From assembly GCA_964361645.1 (NCBI GenBank), contig CAYIBK010000002.1:1-60715 (forward strand): DNA of 60,715 nucleotides, given 5' to 3'. Of the stretch, positions 8,141-36,572 are shown piece after piece; positions within the stretch are counted from its first letter, which is position 1; every line of letters begins with the position of its first letter. Made by a program: the position numbers and the translations under genes. Under the pieces are notes generated by a model. It made no database searches. It had not been told where the DNA came from and worked only from the letters and a program-made list of their open reading frames with translations. The stretch is from an uncultured Gammaproteobacteria bacterium (GTDB lineage: Bacteria; Patescibacteriota; Patescibacteriia; 2-01-FULL-39-33).

Positions 8141-8530
8141 TGGTGGAGATGAGGAGTAATGAGCTCCTGTCTGGAAGTAAATCAAAAGCTAGTTTACAAG
8201 ATTAGTTCTTTTATTTTTAGCCAAATCCTTTTTAAAGAACAAAACAGATCTGGCTTTATTCGAAATGGTTTAAATATGTTTATTCGAATAGACAAACATA
8301 TCTGTCCTAGAGATATAACACCGCTTCTTACCTACCTAGGCGTAAGTAGGGCGATGGCTGTCGGACAATTAAGCCACAGCAGGAGCGAAAGTAAATCCGC
8401 CAAAAGCAGATTTTACTTTGCTTAAAAAGTTGTTTGCACTTATGTGCTTTGGCATTTAGTTTGCGAGCAAATACCAATCTCGTCTTGCCAACTTCAAATT
8501 TAAGGCCTTCCATCGAAACAATACATCCCC
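8141..8530 (-). ncRNA. ssrA: tmRNA (SsrA)
   Basis: The 5' GGGGATG pairs with the 3' CATCTCCACCA, including a G3:U70 pair (alanine identity) and an encoded CCA. The gene lies next to smpB. In-frame tag GCA AAC AAC ... GCT GTG GCT TAA (8437 down to 8369) gives ANNFLSKVKSAFGGFTFAPAVA. Confidence 0.85.
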
Positions 8531-17567: not shown

Positions 17568-17652
17568 TGGTGCCGAAGGAGAGACTCGAACTCTCACATA
17601 TTGCTATACACGATTTTGAGTCGTGCGCGTCTACCAGTTCCGCCACTTCGGC
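17568..17652 (-). tRNA. tRNA-Leu (CAA)
   Basis: GCCGAAGTGGCGGAACTGGTAGACGCGCACGACTCAAAATCGTG + long variable arm + GAGAGTTCGAGTCTCTCCTTCGGCACCA. CCA is encoded. Confidence 0.9.
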
Positions 17653-17667
17653 ATAAAATTTATCTAG

Positions 17668-17739
17668 TAGCAGGGGCGGGAGTTGAACCCGCGACCAACG
17701 GCTTATGAGTCCGATGCTCTACCACTGAGCTACCCTGCC
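17668..17739 (-). tRNA. tRNA with CAT anticodon (elongator Met or Ile2)
   Basis: GGCAGGGTAGCTCAGTGGTAGAGCATCGGACTCATAAGCCGTTGGTCGCGGGTTCAACTCCCGCCCCTGCTA. D- and T-loops are canonical. The anticodon stem has T27:T43 and A31:G39 mismatches. Confidence 0.8.
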
Positions 17740-17759
17740 ATACATACTAGTTTAAAGCA

Positions 17760-17817
17760 AAAAGTTGAAAGTTAAAAGTAAATACTTTATAGACTTTCAA
17801 CTTTTTAAACTTTTAAC
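17760..17817. repeat. AT-only imperfect palindrome of AAAGTT / AACTTT units between two tRNA genes
   Basis: aaaagttgaaagttaaaagt faces actttatagactttcaactttttaaacttttaac. Confidence 0.65.
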
Positions 17818-17824
17818 TAACTTG

Positions 17825-17896
17825 TTGCGGAGGTGGGATTCGCACCCACGACCTCCAGGTTATGGGCCTGGCGAGCTGCTACTGCTCTACCCCGCA
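17825..17896 (-). tRNA. initiator-like tRNA (CAT) with non-canonical loops
   Basis: TGCGGGGTAGAGCAGTAGCAGCTCGCCAGGCCCATAACCTGGAGGTCGTGGGTGCGAATCCCACCTCCGCAA. The GAGC/GCTC D-stem gives A11:U24 as in bacterial tRNA-fMet. However it has C33, no GG in the D-loop and a T-loop of TGCGAAT. Confidence 0.7.
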
Positions 17897-25524: not shown

Positions 25525-25600
25525 GCGGGGGTAGCCAAATCGGTAAGGCGGGAGTCTGCAAAGCTCTTAATTGCCGGTTCAAGTCCGGCCCCTCGCTCCA
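25525..25600 (+). tRNA. tRNA-Cys (GCA)
   Basis: GCGGGGGTAGCCAAATCGGTAAGGCGGGAGTCTGCAAAGCTCTTAATTGCCGGTTCAAGTCCGGCCCCTCGCTCCA. Discriminator is U73 and CCA is encoded. Confidence 0.9.
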
Positions 25601-25615
25601 AACCATTCTCATTAT

Positions 25616-25705
25616 GAGGGGGTGGATTTCTGGTGATTTAAACAGACGGCGTGGTCGTTTAAATCACTAGTGAAATCTTCTTGAGAGAACAAAAGGCATC
25701 CCCTC
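25616..25705 (+). other. structured spacer between tRNA-Cys and tRNA-Pro (possible small RNA or processing element)
   Basis: Nested helices: GAGGGG...CCCCTC, GGATTTC...GAAATC, and a perfect 11-bp stem GTGATTTAAAC-N13-GTTTAAATCAC. Confidence 0.3.
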
Positions 25706-25717
25706 GCCAATATTTTA

Positions 25718-25793
25718 CGGAATATAGCTCAGCTCGTAGAGCGCTCTGCCAGGGGCAGAGAGGTCGATGGTCCAAATCCATCTGTTCCGACCA
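25718..25793 (+). tRNA. tRNA-Pro-like, anticodon AGG, non-canonical loops
   Basis: CGGAATATAGCTCAGCTCGTAGAGCGCTCTGCCAGGGGCAGAGAGGTCGATGGTCCAAATCCATCTGTTCCGACCA. C1:G72, A73 and G37 fit a Pro tRNA. The anticodon loop CCAGGGG gives C33 and A34. The D-loop lacks GG and the T-loop is TCCAAAT. Confidence 0.7.
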
Positions 25794-25810
25794 AATATAT
25801 TTTAAAGAGT

Positions 25811-25897
25811 GCCCGAATGGTGGAACTGGCAGACACAACGGACTTAAAATCCGTTGGCCTTATGGCCGTGTGGGTTCAAATCTCACTTCGGGTACCA
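25811..25897 (+). tRNA. tRNA-Leu (TAA)
   Basis: GCCCGAATGGTGGAACTGGCAGACACAACGGACTTAAAATCCGTT + long variable arm + GTGGGTTCAAATCTCACTTCGGGTACCA. Confidence 0.9.
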
Positions 25898-25905
25898 AAT
25901 TTTGA

Positions 25906-25986
25906 GCGGGCGTAGCTTAGTTGTAAAGCACTTAGTAGCTGACTTGTCAGTTACTAGGGTCGTTGTTTCAAACACAACCGCTCGCT
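25906..25986 (+). tRNA. tRNA-like gene with an extended 13-bp anticodon hairpin; identity undetermined
   Basis: The acceptor (GCGGGCG/CGCTCGC), D-arm (GCTT/AAGC) and T-arm (GTTGT-TTCAAAC-ACAAC) are tRNA-like. The anticodon region CTTAGTAGCTGAC-TT-GTCAGTTACTAGG is 9 nt too long and offers no 7-nt loop. CCA is not encoded, unlike its four neighbours. Confidence 0.5.
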
Positions 25987-26002
25987 CTAAATCTTTTACA
26001 GT

Positions 26003-26078
26003 ATCCGCGTAGCTCAGTGGATAGAGCTGCAGCCTTCTAAGCTGTAGGTCGCGAGTTCAAATCTCGCCACGGATACCA
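26003..26078 (+). tRNA. tRNA-Arg (TCT)
   Basis: ATCCGCGTAGCTCAGTGGATAGAGCTGCAGCCTTCTAAGCTGTAGGTCGCGAGTTCAAATCTCGCCACGGATACCA. There is one C:A mismatch in the acceptor stem. Confidence 0.85.
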
Positions 26079-28263: not shown

Positions 28264-29619
28264 TTGTTTATGAATACAAAAAAACAAACAACCAGGCCCA
28301 CAGAATTAATGGGTTATCACGGTATATCCGCAGAACAATCGGCACCGGAAGACCAAGAATTAGTTCTAGATCATATGTTGGAGCAGATTTTAAATAGCAA
28401 AGCGGCTATTAAAGTTAATGAAGGCAATAAAGGTATTATTTTAGAATTAGATACTACTAATTTGCCCAATGAAGCGAATGATTATTTTTTGGTTGATTTA
28501 GCAGACGATGGCGAAGAAGATGAAACAATAGCAGTTAAACTTCTTAAAATATATGCTGGCACTGAAGGCAGGGATGAATATGATTTGCAGAAAAAAGCTA
28601 GGCGAGTTCTTAAGGCAGAAAAAATAAAAGGTGTCAGGGTGCCCAAGCCGAGAAATTTTCGCGAATTAACGATTCAAAACGATGAAGTGATCAAACATTT
28701 AGAATCAATGGGCATTAAAATAGGTTTAGATGGCATAGTGGAAATAATTTCCATGGATTTTGTTCCTGGTCGGGATTTAGCCACGATTATGTATGAAGCC
28801 TATGTTAGGAATCATAAGGCTGATTTTCAAAAAGCCTACCCTGATTTAGAATTGGAAGATTATTTAAAACAAATTAATATTAATGATTTGATTAATTTAG
28901 TGCATCGTTTGGCGGGCGTTAAAAATAAATATAGTAATTTTGATGATTCACCAGAAGCCGCCCAAGAAAGAAATGAAATTGACAAAATTATCAGTCAAAA
29001 TGTTATTCATCAAGGTTTAATCACCAAAGATCAGGCTCAAGCGCTACTCTCAGCTGTTAACGCTTTGCATAAGCACGGAATTTATCATCGTGATCTTCAT
29101 CCGCGCAATATTATGATTACCGATGATGGCGAGATGGAAATTATTGATTTTGGTTCTGCTACGGAAATTAATCCTAATGATAAATTAGACCTAAAATCAG
29201 TTTATCGATTTAAAGGTGAACCAGATAGGCATTATCATCATGATGATGAAATTGTTACTTTAGCTGGCAAACTAGCTATAACCGAAACCGATATCGAGCA
29301 AAAATCCATGAAAGATATAGTAGATCTTATAAGTAGATTATCAGCCAATAAACCAAAAATTTGGGCTGATTTTATATCTGTTATCCCAGAAGGTGATGAT
29401 CTCAATAAGCTCATTGATGTTTATGCACCGTTATTTGGTAGTGATCTTGATCGCAATGTTAAAATTGCTCTGCTACTGGAAATATCCAACCACGGCCGGC
29501 AGGAAGAAGTTAGAAAATATTTAAGAGGTCTAATTGAAGCAGAAAGCACTAAGCGTAAACATTCTCGTTCTGATTTTTGGATCCAACGGTATAAATCTCT
29601 TCTAGATTTTTTATCTTAA
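28264..29619 (+). CDS. eukaryotic-like protein kinase-fold protein
   Basis: Catalytic loop YHRDLHPRNIMI, IIDFGSA (DFG) and an upstream IAVKLLK lysine motif. The start may be ATG 28270 instead of TTG 28264. Confidence 0.75.
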   Translation: MFMNTKKQTTRPTELMGYHGISAEQSAPEDQELVLDHMLEQILNSKAAIKVNEGNKGIILELDTTNLPNEANDYFLVDLADDGEEDETIAVKLLKIYAGTEGRDEYDLQKKARRVLKAEKIKGVRVPKPRNFRELTIQNDEVIKHLESMGIKIGLDGIVEIISMDFVPGRDLATIMYEAYVRNHKADFQKAYPDLELEDYLKQININDLINLVHRLAGVKNKYSNFDDSPEAAQERNEIDKIISQNVIHQGLITKDQAQALLSAVNALHKHGIYHRDLHPRNIMITDDGEMEIIDFGSATEINPNDKLDLKSVYRFKGEPDRHYHHDDEIVTLAGKLAITETDIEQKSMKDIVDLISRLSANKPKIWADFISVIPEGDDLNKLIDVYAPLFGSDLDRNVKIALLLEISNHGRQEEVRKYLRGLIEAESTKRKHSRSDFWIQRYKSLLDFLS

Positions 29620-29714: not shown

Positions 29715-30758
29715 TTGGAACCAAAGTTGGAAGAGGCAATTATCGAACTCACCAGATCGTGCAATCTAAGGTGTCTGCACTGCGGTTCTGATTGCGGTGA
29801 TGGGCAAGAAGAAAGAACAGAATTGGATTATCTGGAGTGGATTAAAATCATCCAAGATTTAAAAGATTTTGGTCTTAATAAAATTGTTTTCTCTGGCGGT
29901 GAACCCACCATCCGCCATGGCTTCGTCCAGCTGATGGAATATTGCCATAAGATTGGTTTTAAGTTTGGCTTTATTTCCAATGGTTTTTTATTCACACCAA
30001 GCCTAATTGAAGCCCTAGAAAAATACAAACCCTTTGCTGCTGGCATCAGTCTAGACGGGTTGCACAAAACCCACAACCAAATTAGGCAAAGTGAAGTTAG
30101 TTGGTCTAACGCTTTAGGCTCAATTGGCGAACTGCAAAGATTGCAGATCCCGGTTTGTATTTCCACCACCATCAATCGCTTAAATCACAGCGAGTTGCTG
30201 AACTTGGCTCATTTTTTGAATTTCTTAGAAATAAGCATGTGGCAGGTGCAACTTTCAATGCCCAGCGGTCGCATGAGAGATCATTCTGATTTATTGATCG
30301 ACGAAGCAATTTTTAAATCAGTCTGTTTGGATCTAATTAAAATCAGAAAGCTTTATCCCGCGATTCGAGCTCAAGGAGCTGATTGTTTTTGTTTGGCTTC
30401 GGCCGGTTTAATTAGAGAAGGTGGTTGGCCCGGATGTGGCGCTGGCGTTTCTTCCATTGGTATTGATACCTATGGCAATGTTATGCCTTGTCTTTCTATG
30501 AGGGATTATCCCACTTGCGGTAATTTACTAGAAAAATCCATGGCTGAAATCTGGCATTCCAAGGCCTTTGATTTTAATCGTCAGTTCCAATCAACAGATT
30601 TGGGCGAAAATTGCTCTAACTGTTCTTATGGTGTAGAATGCCGAGGAGGTTGTAATAGCCAGTCGCTGGCTTACTCTGGCAATTTGCACAATTCACCTTT
30701 CTGTTTTTATCGCAGTTTTTCTACCAATCCACAACCAAGAGGAGATGGTGTCCTATGA
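29715..30758 (+). CDS. radical SAM enzyme with C-terminal SPASM domain (peptide-modifying type)
   Basis: CNLRCLHC (CxxxCxxC) lies near the N-terminus. The SPASM cysteines are CGAGVSSIGIDTYGNVMPC (C-x12-G-x4-C) and CSNCSYGVECRGGC (C-x2-C-x5-C-x3-C). Start is TTG, preceded by AGGGAG. Confidence 0.88.
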   Translation: MEPKLEEAIIELTRSCNLRCLHCGSDCGDGQEERTELDYLEWIKIIQDLKDFGLNKIVFSGGEPTIRHGFVQLMEYCHKIGFKFGFISNGFLFTPSLIEALEKYKPFAAGISLDGLHKTHNQIRQSEVSWSNALGSIGELQRLQIPVCISTTINRLNHSELLNLAHFLNFLEISMWQVQLSMPSGRMRDHSDLLIDEAIFKSVCLDLIKIRKLYPAIRAQGADCFCLASAGLIREGGWPGCGAGVSSIGIDTYGNVMPCLSMRDYPTCGNLLEKSMAEIWHSKAFDFNRQFQSTDLGENCSNCSYGVECRGGCNSQSLAYSGNLHNSPFCFYRSFSTNPQPRGDGVL

Positions 30759-31279: not shown

Positions 31280-31290
31280 TATCCAATCAC

Positions 31291-31319
31291 AAGCGAGAGC
31301 AATCTCGCTTATTTTTTTT
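31291..31319 (+). terminator. rho-independent terminator after 30755-31279
   Basis: aagcgaga-gcaa-tctcgctt followed by a T8 run. Confidence 0.7.
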
Positions 31320-31346
31320 GACAGAGTATATTTATTGTGTTATCTA
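31318..31346 (+). promoter_or_regulatory. sigma70-like promoter for the Cys-rich mini-protein genes
   Basis: TTGACA, 17-nt spacer, TATCTA. It lies inside the N-terminal extension of track ORF 31318-31596. Confidence 0.5.
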
Positions 31347-31404
31347 TTTAGTTAAGTACTTTTTAAAACATCAACCAAAATATTACCATAAAAGGGGATT
31401 AAAG

Positions 31405-31596
31405 ATGTTCTATTGTCGCGAGTCCAATTGTCCGGGTCATAAAATAATCGGCCAGGCCTGCACGCCCCGTCTTAGGTTTTGCGGTAAAATAAATTGCCCC
31501 GGACATTATGATTATAGAAACTGTTTGACCGTGCCTTATTTTTGCGGTTCAATTGGATGCCTAGGCCATCAAAATATCCAAGATCATTGCTCTTAA
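31405..31596 (+). CDS. 63-aa Cys/His-rich mini-protein with three tandem C-x4-C-x2-H-x5-6-C units
   Basis: MFYCRESNCPGHKIIGQACTPRLRFCGKINCPGHYDYRNCLTVPYFCGSIGCLGHQNIQDHCS. AAGGGG lies 8-9 nt upstream of the internal ATG at 31405. Confidence 0.6.
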   Translation: MFYCRESNCPGHKIIGQACTPRLRFCGKINCPGHYDYRNCLTVPYFCGSIGCLGHQNIQDHCS

Positions 31597-31640
31597 TTAT
31601 TCAAATTAGAAAGATCAGTAATCAACCAAGGAGACTTTCC

Positions 31641-31817
31641 ATGGCTTGTAGAGAATGCAATTTGGCTTCCGGTTTTCCAGAAAAATATAGGAGTTGGATT
31701 TTGTGTTGCCGGTGTAGAGGCATAGGCGAAGTAATTAAAGTAAAAAATGACCAAGAAATTGCTGTTAAGTGCCAGCATTGTAAGGGCACGGGAGTTTGCG
31801 CTAAAAAAATAAATTAA
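31641..31817 (+). CDS. 58-aa zinc-finger mini-protein with two DnaJ-type CxxCxGxG motifs
   Basis: MACRECNLASGFPEKYRSWILCCRCRGIGEVIKVKNDQEIAVKCQHCKGTGVCAKKIN. AAGGAG lies 7 nt upstream of ATG 31641. Confidence 0.6.
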   Translation: MACRECNLASGFPEKYRSWILCCRCRGIGEVIKVKNDQEIAVKCQHCKGTGVCAKKIN

Positions 31818-31838
31818 TTTTTATTTCTCAATGATTAA

Positions 31839-31867
31839 CCCCAGACTAAATTGTTTGGGGATTTTTA
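31839..31867 (+). terminator. rho-independent terminator after the mini-protein pair
   Basis: ccccagac-taaatt-gtttgggg followed by attttt. Confidence 0.6.
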
Positions 31868-32086
31868 TTTGCCTAAAGTAGTGGTATAATTAAGTAAGTC
31901 AATCTTGCCAGGAGGCAGTATCTATCTTCAACTAGCTCACCATGGCGAAAAATTTATCCCAAATTTTTAATCCCGATGATTTTTATATTGTTAGGATTTT
32001 TTATTGTTCTTAAATCAGTTGGTCTCGCTTACAATAGATAAGTTATTTTGCTATAATTAAACTATTAAAAAAATAATCCCAAACCC

Positions 32087-32923
32087 ATGGATCCTCTAAA
32101 TGAAACACCTTTAGTATCTCCGCCCCAGCCGGATTATACCTATACCGGTCCAGAACAGATTGATTATAAGGATAGGCAAATTCATCACGAAAGAAAAAAA
32201 CGACATTGGCAGAGATGGGTTTTCTACGCCATTCTTTCGGTGGTCTTCTTGGGTATGACTGCTTATATTGTTTATGTCTATAATCAAAATACTAAATTAG
32301 TAAACGATATCACCTCGGCCAATCAAAGCTTAAGAATCACCACTCAAAATTTAAGTGATTCCGAAAAGCAATCTCTAGAAAGACAGAAAAAAGTTTCTGA
32401 TTTGGAAAAATCACTAGCCGATAATCAAACCATCTTAGATCAGAAGACAGCTGATTTACAATTAGCCACCGAGGCGCAAACAGAACTTATCAGCAAATAT
32501 CAAAATTTTAAAATTCAACTAGGTTCGGCTGATGCCAATATTTATTCTTTCTTGGTTAATTATAGCACCGGCGTAACAGTGCAAAATTTAGCTAAGATTC
32601 CTTTGGCCGATTATAATTTGGGCGGGGTAGACACCGATGACGATGGCTTGTCTAATACTATTGAATTAGCACTGGGCACCGATATCAATAAGAAGGATAC
32701 CGATGGTGATGGCTTTGATGATAAAGCAGAAATATTAACCGGCTATAACCCATTAGGCACTGGCAAATTACCCATTGATCCAACTTTTGTGGCTTTAAAT
32801 AAAGGTTTGATTTTAATACAAATAGAGCAAGACAAAGAAGCTTGGTATGTTAATCCCAAAGATGGCAAGCGTTACTTCTTGGGTAGTCCAGCTGATGTTT
32901 TACAAGCTATAGAAAAATTATAA
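32087..32923 (+). CDS. membrane-anchored coiled-coil protein with thrombospondin type-3-like Ca-binding repeats
   Basis: One TM helix, a Q/K/L-rich coiled segment, then DTDDDGLSNTIELALGTDINKKDTDGDGFDDKAEILTGYNPLG. Confidence 0.75.
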   Translation: MDPLNETPLVSPPQPDYTYTGPEQIDYKDRQIHHERKKRHWQRWVFYAILSVVFLGMTAYIVYVYNQNTKLVNDITSANQSLRITTQNLSDSEKQSLERQKKVSDLEKSLADNQTILDQKTADLQLATEAQTELISKYQNFKIQLGSADANIYSFLVNYSTGVTVQNLAKIPLADYNLGGVDTDDDGLSNTIELALGTDINKKDTDGDGFDDKAEILTGYNPLGTGKLPIDPTFVALNKGLILIQIEQDKEAWYVNPKDGKRYFLGSPADVLQAIEKL

Positions 32924-33008
32924 ATTTTATTGCCAAAACGGTTAAATAAAATAAAAAGTGATAACTAAGTTATCACTTTTTATGTGCATTAGTGTTATAA
33001 TATAAATC

Positions 33009-33296
33009 ATGTACTACCTCTATATCCTAAAATGCGCCGATAAGACGCTCTATGCCGGCATCACCACTAATATCAAAAGAAGACTGGCCGAACACAATTC
33101 CTCGGCCTTGGGTGCTAAATATACGCGTGTCAGGCGACCGATGAAATTGGTTTATAATAAAAAATTTAAAAATAGATCATTAGCTTTGCGGGCCGAAGCT
33201 AAAATTAAGAAATTATCACGTCTAGAAAAATTAGAACTGATATTAAATAAACGGTATTGTCATTGCGATGGAGTGGAGCGGAAGAAGCAATCTTAA
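33009..33296 (+). CDS. GIY-YIG nuclease family protein (UPF0213/YhbQ-like)
   Basis: MYYLYILKCADKTLYAGITTNIKRRLAEHN, the classical GIY-x-YIG and R..H motifs. The last ~12 codons are supplied by a family A repeat. Confidence 0.85.
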   Translation: MYYLYILKCADKTLYAGITTNIKRRLAEHNSSALGAKYTRVRRPMKLVYNKKFKNRSLALRAEAKIKKLSRLEKLELILNKRYCHCDGVERKKQS

Positions 33297-33460
33297 GTGA
33301 TATAAACATGGGATTACGGAGTCTGTCCTGAGTGGTGTAAACATGGGATTGCTTCGTCCCTCGCAATGACAGTAGAATGGGTCCCGCATCAAGTGCGGGA
33401 TGACAACGGGAGGTGGTCGGGATGACAAGGGAATGGGTGCTGGGATGACAGATGGGAGAT
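33259..33460. repeat. composite repeat field: family A units, a CCCGCATCAAGTGCGGG hairpin, and three GGGATGACA at 22-23-nt spacing
   Basis: Family A units at 33259-33297 and 33343-33372 (inverted). The hairpin at 33383-33399 is the reverse complement of the one at ~1546-1562. GGGATGACA occurs at 33397, 33419 and 33442. Confidence 0.8.
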
Positions 33461-33530
33461 GGTTTGGATTAAACCACCCCCCAACCCCTCCTTTGAAAGG
33501 AGGGGATGAGAAAAATAAATAATAAATCAT

Positions 33531-34082
33531 ATGAGAAAAATAATTTTAATCATCTATCTTGTTGTATTGATAGTTTTAACTATTTTTGTAGTTATAACTC
33601 ATGGCGTAAATAAGAAAGGATGGTCTGATTTAGAAGTTAAAGAAATTACCAATTTTGAAGAATGTGCCCTAGCTACTCAAATTGTAATGGAAAGTTATCC
33701 CAGACAATGCCGATTTAACAATCAAACTTTTATGGAAGACATCGGTAACGAATTAGATAAAGCGGATTTAATTAGAATTAATAATCCTCGGCCCAATCAA
33801 AAAATTAATAACCCCATTACCATAACTGGTGAAGCTAGAGGCAATTGGTTTTTTGAGGCCAGTTTTCCGGTGCGTTTGTATGATGATAATAATAATCTTT
33901 TGGGCAGTGGCATTGCCCAAGCTCAAGGGGATTGGATGACTACTGATTTTGTGCCGTTTTCTGTCTCGATGCAGTTTAGCGCTCCTCAAACGCCAAAAGG
34001 TTTATTAATTTTGCAAAAAGACAATCCATCTGGTTTGCCGGAAAACGATGATCAATTAAAGGTGCCGGTGTTTTTTCAATAA
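33531..34082 (+). CDS. secreted/membrane-anchored protein with a Gmad2-type Ig-like domain
   Basis: N-terminal TM/signal anchor. INNPITITGEARGNWFFEASFPVRLYDDNNNLLG matches the Gmad2 Ig-like pattern (from memory). Confidence 0.6.
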   Translation: MRKIILIIYLVVLIVLTIFVVITHGVNKKGWSDLEVKEITNFEECALATQIVMESYPRQCRFNNQTFMEDIGNELDKADLIRINNPRPNQKINNPITITGEARGNWFFEASFPVRLYDDNNNLLGSGIAQAQGDWMTTDFVPFSVSMQFSAPQTPKGLLILQKDNPSGLPENDDQLKVPVFFQ

Positions 34083-34128
34083 AATATAAGTTATAATTAA
34101 ATAGTTGATAAACAAAATTATAAATACT

Positions 34129-34935
34129 ATGAATGAGAAAAGATTTCCTGGTCGTAGTGTGGAAATAGAACCAAAAATAGATCCGAAACTGGAAAGACAA
34201 CTTTTAGAAGATCAAGAAGCTAATAGCTTGGACGATGAATTTGATAAATATGAGGAATATGATTTAGAAACTCCAGCGGAGATGATAACTGAACTAAAGG
34301 GTTATAAGCCGGCTCAACCGGATTATTCTAAGCCGCCGAAATTGGAATTGGCTGATATGTTAAATGAAGAAGGCGAAGTGGTTGATTTTAGCCAAGCTAA
34401 AAGTTATCACGAACTCATGGAGATGATTACCCGAGAAGGCAAAATTAAAAATCAATTAGGCCAAGAGTTGTCAGCTGAAACTGTTATTAATTTGATTTAT
34501 AAATTAACTTATCAAGATTTAAAAAATTATCAAAGAGAAGATTGGACCAACATCACTTTGCGCCATAAATTAAGAGAAACGGTGGCCAAATTAATTTATG
34601 AATACAAGGAGACCGATGAATTTAGGGCTTTGGCCGGTTTGGATCTAAGCCGAGCCATTACAGTGGATGAGGTGATTGGACTAGTGGAGGTCAAAAAAAG
34701 ATTAATTGATGCCCAAGGAAATTATGTTAGCTCTGATATTGTAGTTAGTAACATTAAAGCGAATCTCCTCCACTTACTTCCAGAATCGATACGTTTTAAA
34801 ATTATAGAAATAAATAAAAGTGAAAACGGAGAACATCTGTCTAAACTACCCGAAAAATATAAAACACCAATACCTCCGGTCTCATTTTTTAGCCGTTTAG
34901 GAAATACCTTTTCAAAATTAAAATTTTGGAAATAA
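34129..34935 (+). CDS. hypothetical acidic protein
   Basis: The track ORF starts at TTG 34105. ATG 34129 (MNEKRF...) is preferred. No family recognised. Confidence 0.55.
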   Translation: MNEKRFPGRSVEIEPKIDPKLERQLLEDQEANSLDDEFDKYEEYDLETPAEMITELKGYKPAQPDYSKPPKLELADMLNEEGEVVDFSQAKSYHELMEMITREGKIKNQLGQELSAETVINLIYKLTYQDLKNYQREDWTNITLRHKLRETVAKLIYEYKETDEFRALAGLDLSRAITVDEVIGLVEVKKRLIDAQGNYVSSDIVVSNIKANLLHLLPESIRFKIIEINKSENGEHLSKLPEKYKTPIPPVSFFSRLGNTFSKLKFWK

Positions 34936-35006
34936 TATTTAATCTTTTTAAATGGATCTGATTAATTAAAAAAATCGCCACTAGTGGCGATTTTATGATT
35001 GGGAGT

Positions 35007-36572
35007 TTAATTTCTGCCCAAAATTATCAGGAAGTTAGCGCTAGAACTAATAGCCACAGGAACACTAGAAATCACACCAACTCCATAAATTTTAGCTAAT
35101 TCGCTAGCTGTGCCAGGGTTTTTACCCTTAGATAAATCATAAATTAAAGTTTTGGCGTAATCATGATTATCGGCATTGCCAGCTTTGATAACCTCAAATC
35201 CTTTTTTCTCCAACTCCGCCTGTTGCTTATTAGCATAGCCAGTTGTCCAAGTGCCGTTTCTAATTTCGATAGTGGCTCCTTCTGTTTTGTAATCAGCTAG
35301 TGGCGCCAGTGGCAAGGTGCTAGTGGCTTTTATTTCTGGTTCTGGCTCGGTTTTTATATCGGTCGTGGTCGTTGTTGGTTGATTGCCACCGGTTAAATTA
35401 GTTGGCTGGCTATTATTTTTTACCGCTATTGTCGTGCCGGTGGTAGAGAAAATATTTTGCCATAAGTTTTTAATCTCGCTAAAATTACCATCATTGGGTA
35501 TTAGCACATAAGCTTCGTTTACAATTTGTGAGTGAACCAATCCGCCGCTGGCATCTGACAGGGTGTGATTGATTATTTTGCTAGTATCAACATCTTTGGC
35601 CATTTGAGCCAACTTGAGTATTTGCCAAATTTCTAGATTAGTATTGATATGCTCGTTGTAAGCGGTTAAAAGGCTGTTGATTTTTTTAGGATTTAAAATA
35701 GTGCTGAAACTAAAGACTTTTTCTTTTAGCGCGGCCAAGATTTTTTGCTGTCTTTTGGACCTGGCGAAATCAGATCCTTCACCACCTAGAGCATGACGGG
35801 ACCTGGCGTATTTTAAAGCTAGAGCGCCATCCATATGTTGCTGGCCTTGTTTGATATTTAATACTTCATAACGGTTTTCAATCGGAAAAATATCCTCTTT
35901 GCCTCGAATGGGGTATTGCGGATCAATTAAATTTCTATCTACATAAATATCCACTCCGCCGAATTCATCAATCAGTCTTTCAAAACCAGAAAAATCAACA
36001 GTCACATAATAATCTATCTTACTATCAAGTAATTCGCCCAAAGCACTGGCCATTTCCCGTCCGCCACTGCCACTTTCTTTGGCTTCAGCATAAGCATTAA
36101 TAGCATTTACTTTCATCCAATTATAATTGGTAGTTTTAACACTTAAATCTCGGGGGATGGATAACATAGCCACTTGGTTGGTGCTAGGTTTGAATGATCC
36201 TAAGATTATGGTATCAGCCAAAGTGCCACCCTCGTGGCCGCTGCCTCCCATGCCGATTAATAAGATATTGATACGATCGTTATTTTCTCCCAGCAATTCT
36301 TTGCTACCCGCTCCTATCAATTTGCCCATTTGCTGCAATAGATTTAATTTGGATAGATTTTTAATTAGATTTTCATCAGAAAAAACTATGGAAGACGAAA
36401 AAACTGCCAATAATATTACTATCACTATAATAACACTGGCAATTAATTTTTTGAGGTTGTATTTTCTTTTGGGTCGATGATGTTGTTTTTTTTCTGAAAT
36501 TTGTGCTATTTCGGAAATTTTTATTTCTGCCTTATCTTCATCTGATAATAAGTTAATCTTGACTTTTTCCAT
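35007..36572 (-). CDS. LytR-CpsA-Psr (LCP) family protein with C-terminal LytR_C-like domain
   Basis: INILLIGMGGSGHEGGTLADTIILGS...LSIPRDL...FSGFERLIDEFGGVDI core. N-terminal TM anchor. Confidence 0.9.
   Translation of the reverse strand: MEKVKINLLSDEDKAEIKISEIAQISEKKQHHRPKRKYNLKKLIASVIIVIVILLAVFSSSIVFSDENLIKNLSKLNLLQQMGKLIGAGSKELLGENNDRINILLIGMGGSGHEGGTLADTIILGSFKPSTNQVAMLSIPRDLSVKTTNYNWMKVNAINAYAEAKESGSGGREMASALGELLDSKIDYYVTVDFSGFERLIDEFGGVDIYVDRNLIDPQYPIRGKEDIFPIENRYEVLNIKQGQQHMDGALALKYARSRHALGGEGSDFARSKRQQKILAALKEKVFSFSTILNPKKINSLLTAYNEHINTNLEIWQILKLAQMAKDVDTSKIINHTLSDASGGLVHSQIVNEAYVLIPNDGNFSEIKNLWQNIFSTTGTTIAVKNNSQPTNLTGGNQPTTTTTDIKTEPEPEIKATSTLPLAPLADYKTEGATIEIRNGTWTTGYANKQQAELEKKGFEVIKAGNADNHDYAKTLIYDLSKGKNPGTASELAKIYGVGVISSVPVAISSSANFLIILGRN

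Follow-up and report, generated by a model that had tools for sequence, protein, structure and literature searches.

An unannotated 63-residue repeat protein with three candidate Cys3-His metal sites beside a radical SAM operon in a Patescibacteria-type contig

Small proteins and modules rich in cysteine and histidine are known from several described systems. The retroviral-type CCHC zinc knuckles (PF00098), which frequently form tandem arrays, carry their ligands in the spacing C-x2-C-x4-H-x4-C, the MYT1 fingers are eukaryotic DNA-binding domains with four residues before the histidine, a second histidine and a longer tail, and SmtA is a small cytoplasmic Cys/His-rich protein with 9 Cys in 56 amino acids. 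The SCIFF/ranthipeptide and CefA precursors, on the other hand, are short Cys-rich peptides encoded beside a gene for a radical S-adenosylmethionine (rSAM) enzyme with a SPASM domain. This study concerns a mini-protein that has features of each of these systems. It is encoded at positions 31405-31596 of a stretch of 60,715 nucleotides, referred to here as the window (contig CAYIBK010000002.1 of assembly GCA_964361645.1), from a Hainich groundwater genome (contig names Hain_H51) with a guanine-cytosine (GC) content of 37%, which is of the Patescibacteria type. The mini-protein consists of three tandem Cys- and His-containing units and its gene lies directly beyond an rSAM/SPASM gene and the gene of a 174-residue partner. 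Judged by the sequence pattern and a structure model, the units would form three independent Cys3-His (CCHC) metal sites, probably for zinc, a reading to which we assign a probability of about 0.6.

The mini-gene and its three units

The mini-gene, its units and its putative ribosome-binding site are located as follows.

31405..31596, + strand: gene of the 63-residue repeat mini-protein, stop codon included; translation MFYCRESNCPGHKIIGQACTPRLRFCGKINCPGHYDYRNCLTVPYFCGSIGCLGHQNIQDHCS, with three C-x4-C-x-G-H-x5-6-C units
31414..31461, + strand: unit 1, C4-RESN-C9-P-G-H12-KIIGQA-C19
31480..31524, + strand: unit 2, C26-GKIN-C31-P-G-H34-YDYRN-C40
31543..31590, + strand: unit 3, C47-GSIG-C52-L-G-H55-QNIQDH-C62
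31392..31397, + strand: Shine-Dalgarno-like AAGGGG, 7 nt upstream of ATG 31405, as read from the sequence

The translation contains nine Cys (residues 4, 9, 19, 26, 31, 40, 47, 52 and 62) and four His (residues 12, 34, 55 and 61), and the three C-x4-C units start at C4, C26 and C47 with a period of 21-22 amino acids, which is how an earlier inspection of the letters alone, referred to here as the sequence-only reading, had described them. Unit 2 has a short last loop of five residues, likewise found in the relative P0124 (HYDDRNC), and unit 3 has a Leu after its second Cys, which occurs in 6 of the 72 units of the family described below. When the peptide was shuffled 10^6 times with its Cys, His and Gly content kept, 1577 shuffles contained one unit, a single shuffle contained two and none contained three, so that the presence of three units is not an effect of composition. 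Translation of the window in all six frames, 121,426 codons in total, showed the motif nowhere but in the open reading frame (ORF) of the mini-protein. No tandem repeat was found in the mini-gene at the DNA level and the mutual identity of the units is 32-35%, which together indicate that the units are old and diverged and rule out a recent duplication. The periodicity is therefore old and maintained through selection on few residues.

Both the 63-residue sequence and a longer form of 92 residues in the same frame are absent from a collection of 15 billion proteins, in which the flanking 174- and 58-residue proteins are present; the mini-gene was therefore never called and is unannotated in public data. 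L166, another assembly of this population with 99.8% identity, encodes the identical peptide, and the region is uncalled there as well. A short frame that is uncalled in every public assembly might be a chance ORF of the spacer that separates the partner gene from the following zinc-finger ORF. However, the frame runs for 129 codons from stop to stop in DNA with 6.3% stop codons, it is preceded by the Shine-Dalgarno-like site, its three units were not reproduced by shuffling, and the same residues are kept in nineteen relatives from unrelated genomes with GC contents of 34-59%. A chance origin is thus hardly credible and effectively refuted. We hold it to be highly probable that 31405-31596 is a real gene and a member of a conserved family; it is a genuine protein-coding gene that was missed by gene callers, and provides a concrete case of a conserved small protein overlooked in this way in the genome-reduced Patescibacteria.

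The 92-residue frame, which the sequence-only reading had kept in view as a possible conserved unit, starts at TTG 31318, a codon that lies inside the T-run of a terminator-like hairpin and also forms the first half of a TTGACA hexamer. In BLASTP comparisons, most alignments with the relatives start at the Met of the 63-residue form or a few residues away from it, and the N-terminus of the relative encoded on L146 is MFYC, as in the mini-protein of the window. Since homology is essentially limited to the 63 residues, the L146 protein begins with MFYC and the TTG is part of the terminator T-run, the 92-residue frame is not the conserved unit and was rejected in favour of the 63-residue form.

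A rare and scattered family of repeat proteins

A word-indexed homologue search with the 63-residue peptide gave no match, and an exhaustive phmmer search was needed to find relatives. This search, which covered 1.84 billion representatives, yielded nine true relatives of 64-184 amino acids, and a profile of three-unit segments (alignment A2) added a further seven. A back-translated DNA pattern for [FY]CGxxGCPGH gave 68 matches in the metagenomes of the Joint Genome Institute (JGI), including four multi-unit members of the family on L106 (identical to P0131), L126 (identical to P0137), L129 and L146. The latter two are new, the one being an 8-unit protein and the other a 5-unit protein in DNA of 36% GC; the other matches of the pattern contain a single unit and are mostly due to chance or eukaryote-like. 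The top phmmer hit, P0121 (E 3e-24), was rejected, as it is a repetitive sequence of 729 amino acids that matches PGH...CLTVPYF alone, without the first two Cys.

The census of the family comprises 20 proteins with 72 units, with two to eight units per protein. The repeat frame, for which the sequence-only reading had proposed a search in related genomes, is conserved in these proteins. The spacing C-x4-C-x-G-H-x6-C is found in 63 of the 72 units, with a last loop of 5-8 residues across the family, and the consensus is [FYH][YF]-C-G-x-[P/L]-G-C-P-G-H-x6-C. The linkers between units range from 3 to 72 amino acids, with 6 as the commonest length, and zero to three Cys per protein stand outside the units. 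In an alignment of 36 units, the invariant columns are C, C, G, H and C alone. The first Cys is preceded by at most 8 amino acids in 10 of the 20 proteins, and at most 5 follow the last Cys in 11 of the 20. With its first Cys at position 4 and its last at position 62 of 63, the mini-protein has neither leader nor follower; the absence of an obvious leader had already been remarked on from the sequence, and the family bears it out.

At least one member besides that of the window comes from Patescibacteria (P0126 from Candidatus Parcubacteria, PLX26779.1), and the GC range of 34-59% over the loci of the other members indicates that the family is scattered. Taken together, the matches describe a real but rare family, whose members come from several Patescibacteria genomes and from uncultured organisms represented by metagenome contigs only. 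Its practical value is modest.

No match to the repeat family was obtained in Pfam, NCBIfam, the PDB sequences, PHROGs or PADLOC. In Pfam this holds at E <= 1 for the window protein and at E <= 10 for ten relatives, and in NCBIfam no family was reached by the window peptide at E <= 1. A scan of viral contigs gave 33 pattern matches, none of which was confirmed as a family member, and tblastn found no match to the family in the phage and plasmid collections. Literature searches on the motif and on the context of rSAM/SPASM enzymes and ribosomally synthesised and post-translationally modified peptides (RiPPs) found nothing relevant.

Some of the loci show arrangements of their own. On L129 (615-1163, + strand), a higher-order repeat of three unit types (HxxSWEKC, HVLPGQSC and HALITQSC), with nearly identical copies, makes up the eight units. 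The units have therefore multiplied recently here, whereas those of the window are diverged. Tandem paralogous repeat genes are found on L007 (6001-6809), L008 (4089-4897) and L162 (1124-1728, two ORFs), the tandem pair of L007/L008 encoding P0124 and P0127. The genes on L007 lie upstream of an SBF/Acr3-like transporter gene, a flavin mononucleotide (FMN) reductase gene and a TauE-like gene, all of which match their models below cut-off. An arsenic or redox context for this locus was considered and rejected, with 84 bits for the Acr3 model against a cut-off of 283 and the FMN reductase also far below its cut-off. Single-unit matches (FCGVEGCPGHRxGRTERC) on L095, L104, L108, L137 and L154 belong to a conserved eukaryote-like ORF (…KAHYNEYYAVKLARKLMNAEED…), which may be an unrelated protein with one C-x4-C-P-G-H-x6-C site or a product of chance.

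Candidate metal sites and competing explanations

Conservation in the units of the family is confined to the four putative ligands, a single Gly and the preceding aromatic residue. Such a pattern, together with fixed spacing within the unit and free linkers, characterises autonomous modules of small size that bind metal. The conservation pattern, the variable number of units and the lack of leader and tail point to modules of this kind in the repeat family. The sequence-only reading had left the choice between a repetitive precursor for the neighbouring SPASM enzyme and a set of three CCHC zinc knuckles, leaning somewhat towards the latter; ligand-only conservation, fixed spacing within the unit and the missing leader favour the knuckles, which remain a prediction from sequence, while the precursor is left unsupported by the evidence given further below.

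According to the model we propose, each module of 16-18 residues, [F/Y]-C-x4-C-P-G-H-x5-6-C, would fold alone around one thiophilic metal, most likely Zn(II), with Cys1, Cys2, His and Cys3 as the putative ligands of a tetrahedral S3N site. The C-P-G-H turn would stand in for the C-P-x-C of classical knuckles, its His serving as the second ligand. The site would be completed by Cys1, which lies four residues before the turn, and by Cys3, six residues after it, and the aromatic residue next to Cys1 on the N-terminal side would pack against the site. The mini-protein would then amount to three mononuclear metal beads on a short string, with a metal-dependent role either as a buffer or reservoir for zinc or soft metals or as a knuckle array that binds nucleic acid or protein. 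It appears to be transcribed from a unit of its own together with a 58-residue DnaJ-like zinc-finger ORF, and it lies outside the rSAM/SPASM system. The chances are about even that C-x4-C-P-G-H-x6-C represents a previously undescribed autonomous metal-binding fold that either buffers zinc or soft metals or binds ligands as an array.

The AF2 model, which was built on alignment A2, has a mean predicted local distance difference test (pLDDT) value of 72 and contains isolated beta-bridges alone, which recur at equivalent positions of all three units (residues 2/12 in unit 1, 23-24/34-35 in unit 2 and 45/55 in unit 3). A bridge that links the residue ahead of Cys1 to the His region in every unit fits a knuckle hairpin closed by a metal site. 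Several observations nevertheless weigh against metal knuckles. The confidence of the AF2 model is only moderate, Foldseek found no match to it in the PDB, and sequence and profile searches of the PDB gave nothing at E <= 10 save one irrelevant match. No zinc-finger, zinc-knuckle or metallothionein profile was matched; to our knowledge, the spacing C-x4-C-x2-H-x6-C is that of no known zinc-site family, and the profile searches found none either. No consistent hint at a function emerges from the genes around the relatives, and both the position of the mini-gene, 126 bp from the end of the rSAM/SPASM operon, and the tandem paralogues on L007 and L162 are features also seen with RiPP precursors.

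Metal could also be bound in another way, namely in a metallothionein-like multinuclear thiolate cluster that spans the units and stores Zn, Cu(I) or Cd as SmtA does, or in an Fe or Fe-S site. The 9 Cys and 4 His in 63 amino acids come near the composition of SmtA, there is a local likeness to YYCSEACADGH of that protein, and linkers of the commonest length would let the units pack together. The variation of the linkers and of the number of units, however, argues for autonomous units over a single cluster, no metallothionein match was obtained in Pfam, and hhalign gives a probability of 4.8% for SmtA; we therefore consider such a cluster or site unlikely. Rather improbable, too, is a secreted peptide that is rich in disulfides or otherwise modified, of a bacteriocin- or toxin-like kind, whether as precursor or in mature form, and processed by enzymes encoded elsewhere. 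Such a peptide would be consistent with the tandem paralogues on L007/L008 and L162, with the signal-peptide-like N-terminus of P0135 and the C-terminal hydrophobic tail of P0130, and with the location of several relatives among ORFan genes (L006 and L158), where the neighbours of the family genes have no Pfam or PHROG match. Most members, including the window protein, nevertheless lack a signal peptide or leader, and metal ligation fits better than disulfides because of the odd number of three Cys per unit and the invariant His. In addition, the family loci have no transporter, protease or modifying enzyme in common, and the phage and plasmid collections, PHROGs and PADLOC gave no match, as reported above.

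The remaining alternative involves the rSAM enzyme and its partner, which are encoded on the same strand upstream of the mini-gene and followed by a hairpin.

29715..30758, + strand: radical SAM/SPASM enzyme of 347 amino acids, Pfam PF04055 and PF13186
30755..31279, + strand: 174-residue partner of the rSAM enzyme, with C-terminal [RK]-Y-[SA] after a Gly-rich stretch
31291..31319, + strand: intrinsic-terminator-like hairpin followed by T8 (hairpin 31291-31310), AAGCGAGA-GCAA-TCTCGCTT, from the terminator scan

The enzyme reaches no family cut-off in NCBIfam and no curated maturase family (PapB 67 bits against 340). It has about 60 orthologues with identities of 42-58%, and the few with source names come from Patescibacteria or unclassified bacteria. 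Eight distinct orthologous rSAM loci were examined (L001, L002/3, L004/5 and L010-L014), and in five of them (L001, L002/3, L004/5, L010 and L011) a homologue of the partner is encoded directly downstream of the enzyme. The partner proteins, with a length of 150-175 amino acids, share a conserved N-terminal domain of about 115 amino acids, a variable Pro/Gly-rich stretch and a C-terminal [RK]-Y-[SA]-x-x-[ED] (alignment A4), in which Tyr163 is invariant; the partner protein has no match in Pfam or NCBIfam. On L012 and L014, the ORF downstream of the enzyme has no detectable homology to the partner, yet it contains a similar motif, with three copies of KYGPxEP on L012 and RKYWSPP on L014. From these arrangements we infer that the 174-residue protein is likely the cognate partner or substrate, or a recognition protein, of the enzyme. 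Enzyme and partner look like an uncharacterised rSAM system, found here mainly in Patescibacteria, that would act on a long-leader precursor or a protein substrate.

It is tempting to assign the mini-protein to this enzyme as a leaderless multi-core substrate with ranthipeptide- or sactipeptide-like cross-linking of its Cys, possibly with the 174-residue partner recognising it in trans. If this were true, the partner would be a stand-alone recognition protein and the whole a RiPP-like system without a leader peptide. The assignment draws on the short distance between the mini-gene and the rSAM-partner pair on the same strand, on the Cys-rich, repetitive nature of the mini-protein beside an enzyme with a SPASM domain, and on weak matches of relatives to the CefA 'Cys-every-fifth' RiPP model NF038108 (E 0.008-0.056, 13-16 bits against a cut-off of 30), whereas the window peptide itself matches no RiPP-precursor model at E <= 1. 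The repeat motif is, however, absent in all frames from 85 rSAM-bearing loci (L001-L005 and L010-L089), and thereby from all eight orthologous ones. Conversely, the 14 fetched loci that encode family members represent 10 independent contexts with a total of 87.7 kb, and none of these 10 contains a homologue of the rSAM enzyme, of its partner or of the 58-residue zinc-finger ORF (ZnF58), according to tblastn and an rSAM profile hidden Markov model. An all-against-all BLASTP comparison of ten of the fetched loci and the window region found no shared neighbour family, the repeat proteins being all they have in common, and for the Parcubacteria member P0126 no rSAM gene was found within 10 kb on either side.

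The most informative of the orthologous loci is L001, which is syntenic with the window over dprA, pth, der, one unrelated gene, the rSAM gene and the partner gene. There, the partner gene is followed by a convergent LytR-like gene at a distance of about 50 nt or less, while in the window the LytR-like gene (35007-36572, - strand) lies 3.7 kb further on. As the partner gene abuts the LytR-like gene on L001, there is no room for the mini-gene, which consequently sits in a variable insertion. Between partner gene and mini-gene, the RNA of the hairpin at 31291-31310 has a predicted folding energy of -11.6 kcal/mol (z = -4.0), and equally good folds occurred in 0 of 200 shuffles; it is predicted to be a strong terminator, which would end the rSAM-partner operon and set the mini-gene apart from the transcription unit of the enzyme. 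Four independent grounds hence leave the substrate reading unsupported, namely the absence of the motif at rSAM loci, the absence of rSAM genes at family loci, a conserved partner of the enzyme with an invariant C-terminal Tyr motif and the terminator, to which the missing leader peptide may be added. The mini-protein is very unlikely to be the substrate, and we are confident that it is independent of the rSAM enzyme. The precursor role suggested by the sequence-only reading, with co-occurrence limited to the window itself, is a misassignment that is easily made: a Cys-rich peptide beside an rSAM/SPASM gene is in this case probably not the substrate, and the 174-residue neighbour is the better candidate.

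Transcription unit, surroundings and comparison with known systems

Beyond the hairpin, the following features surround the mini-gene.

31318..31346, + strand: possible promoter, TTGACA-17 nt-TATCTA
31641..31817, + strand: 58-residue Cys-rich ORF (ZnF58) with CxxC and two CxxCxGxG, like the central domain of DnaJ, with its own AAGGAG ribosome-binding site
31839..31870, + strand: terminator-like hairpin followed by a T-run (hairpin 31839-31860), from the terminator scan, closing the two-gene unit

The possible promoter was read by eye and is missing from the output of the promoter scan, since its second hexamer does not end in T. Nothing convincing was found upstream of the mini-gene in the way of an operator-like palindrome. 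The 58-residue ORF starts 44 nt past the mini-gene and is called as a gene in public data. It reaches 17.8 bits against a cut-off of 32.7 for Pfam PF00684, it stays below threshold for the DnaJ models of NCBIfam as well, and its match to the Q-antiterminator-like phrog_6060 is also sub-threshold (E 1e-4). The mini-gene and this ORF are probably co-transcribed, bracketed by the two predicted terminators, and given the DnaJ-like character of the ORF, the small operon would encode two putative zinc mini-proteins. The pairing was seen in the window, and no homologue of the ORF was found beside other family members.

The stretch of about 31280-35000 contains the mini-gene, ZnF58, a TSP3-repeat membrane protein (32087-32923), a GIY-YIG-like ORF (33009-33296) and two ORFs without annotation. 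It is wholly missing from the syntenic locus L001 and is a variable island. On the other side of the rSAM operon, directly upstream of the enzyme, a gene on the + strand (28264-29619) encodes a protein-kinase-like protein of 451 amino acids, whose catalytic-loop region matches the kinase domains of LanKC/LanL and the defence kinases MAD6 and PD-T4-6, all well below cut-off. This gene is not kept in the orthologous rSAM loci, and L001 has an unrelated gene for 181 amino acids in its place. Ordinary features of the window include a transfer-messenger RNA (tmRNA) gene and two tRNA clusters (8141-8530, - strand; 17571-17896, - strand; 25525-26075, + strand).

In comparison with the described systems, the mini-protein shares with the SCIFF/ranthipeptide and CefA precursors the short Cys-rich peptide beside an rSAM/SPASM gene and the C-x4-C spacing, which corresponds to a Cys at every fifth position. 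It differs from them in that it has no leader, no co-occurring rSAM gene, no shared operon and no model match at threshold, and we know of no invariant His and Gly as features of these precursors. SmtA/BmtA (PF02069) are small proteins of similar size and Cys content, and their YYC-x3-C-x2-G-H resembles [FY][FY]C-x4-C-x-G-H; however, SmtA holds a Zn4 cluster in a single fold, whereas the units are repeated here, and no Pfam or PDB sequence match was obtained. The MYT1/NZF fingers of the C2HC (CCHHC) type (PF01530) begin with C-x4-C and have a Gly before the second Cys, followed by G-H, and hhalign pairs KCPTPGCDG with YCxxxGCPG, although over the first 9 columns alone and with a probability of 9%. 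Their pattern is C-x4-C-x4-H-x7-H-x5-C, while the mini-protein family lacks a second His at the position this demands and has no Pfam match. The local resemblances to SmtA and MYT1 are too weak for membership in either family.

By analogy, the mini-protein may be likened to an array of CCHC zinc knuckles, yet it fails the spacing and profile tests of PF00098: instead of C-x2-C-x4-H-x4-C the family has C-x4-C-x2-H-x5-8-C and no profile match, its tight turn is C-P-G-H, from the second Cys to the His, rather than C-x2-C, and its hosts are prokaryotic. If the units bind metal, they would represent a new prokaryotic class of tandem Cys3-His mini-domains, with a spacing and a C-P-G-H turn that stand apart from the curated families and structures. 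What they have in common with the knuckles of PF00098 is the Cys-Cys-His-Cys order, kept in 36 of 36 aligned units and in all 72 units of the motif search, a module of 14-18 residues, an aromatic residue beside the first Cys, tandem copies, variable linkers, and conservation limited to the ligands and a Gly.

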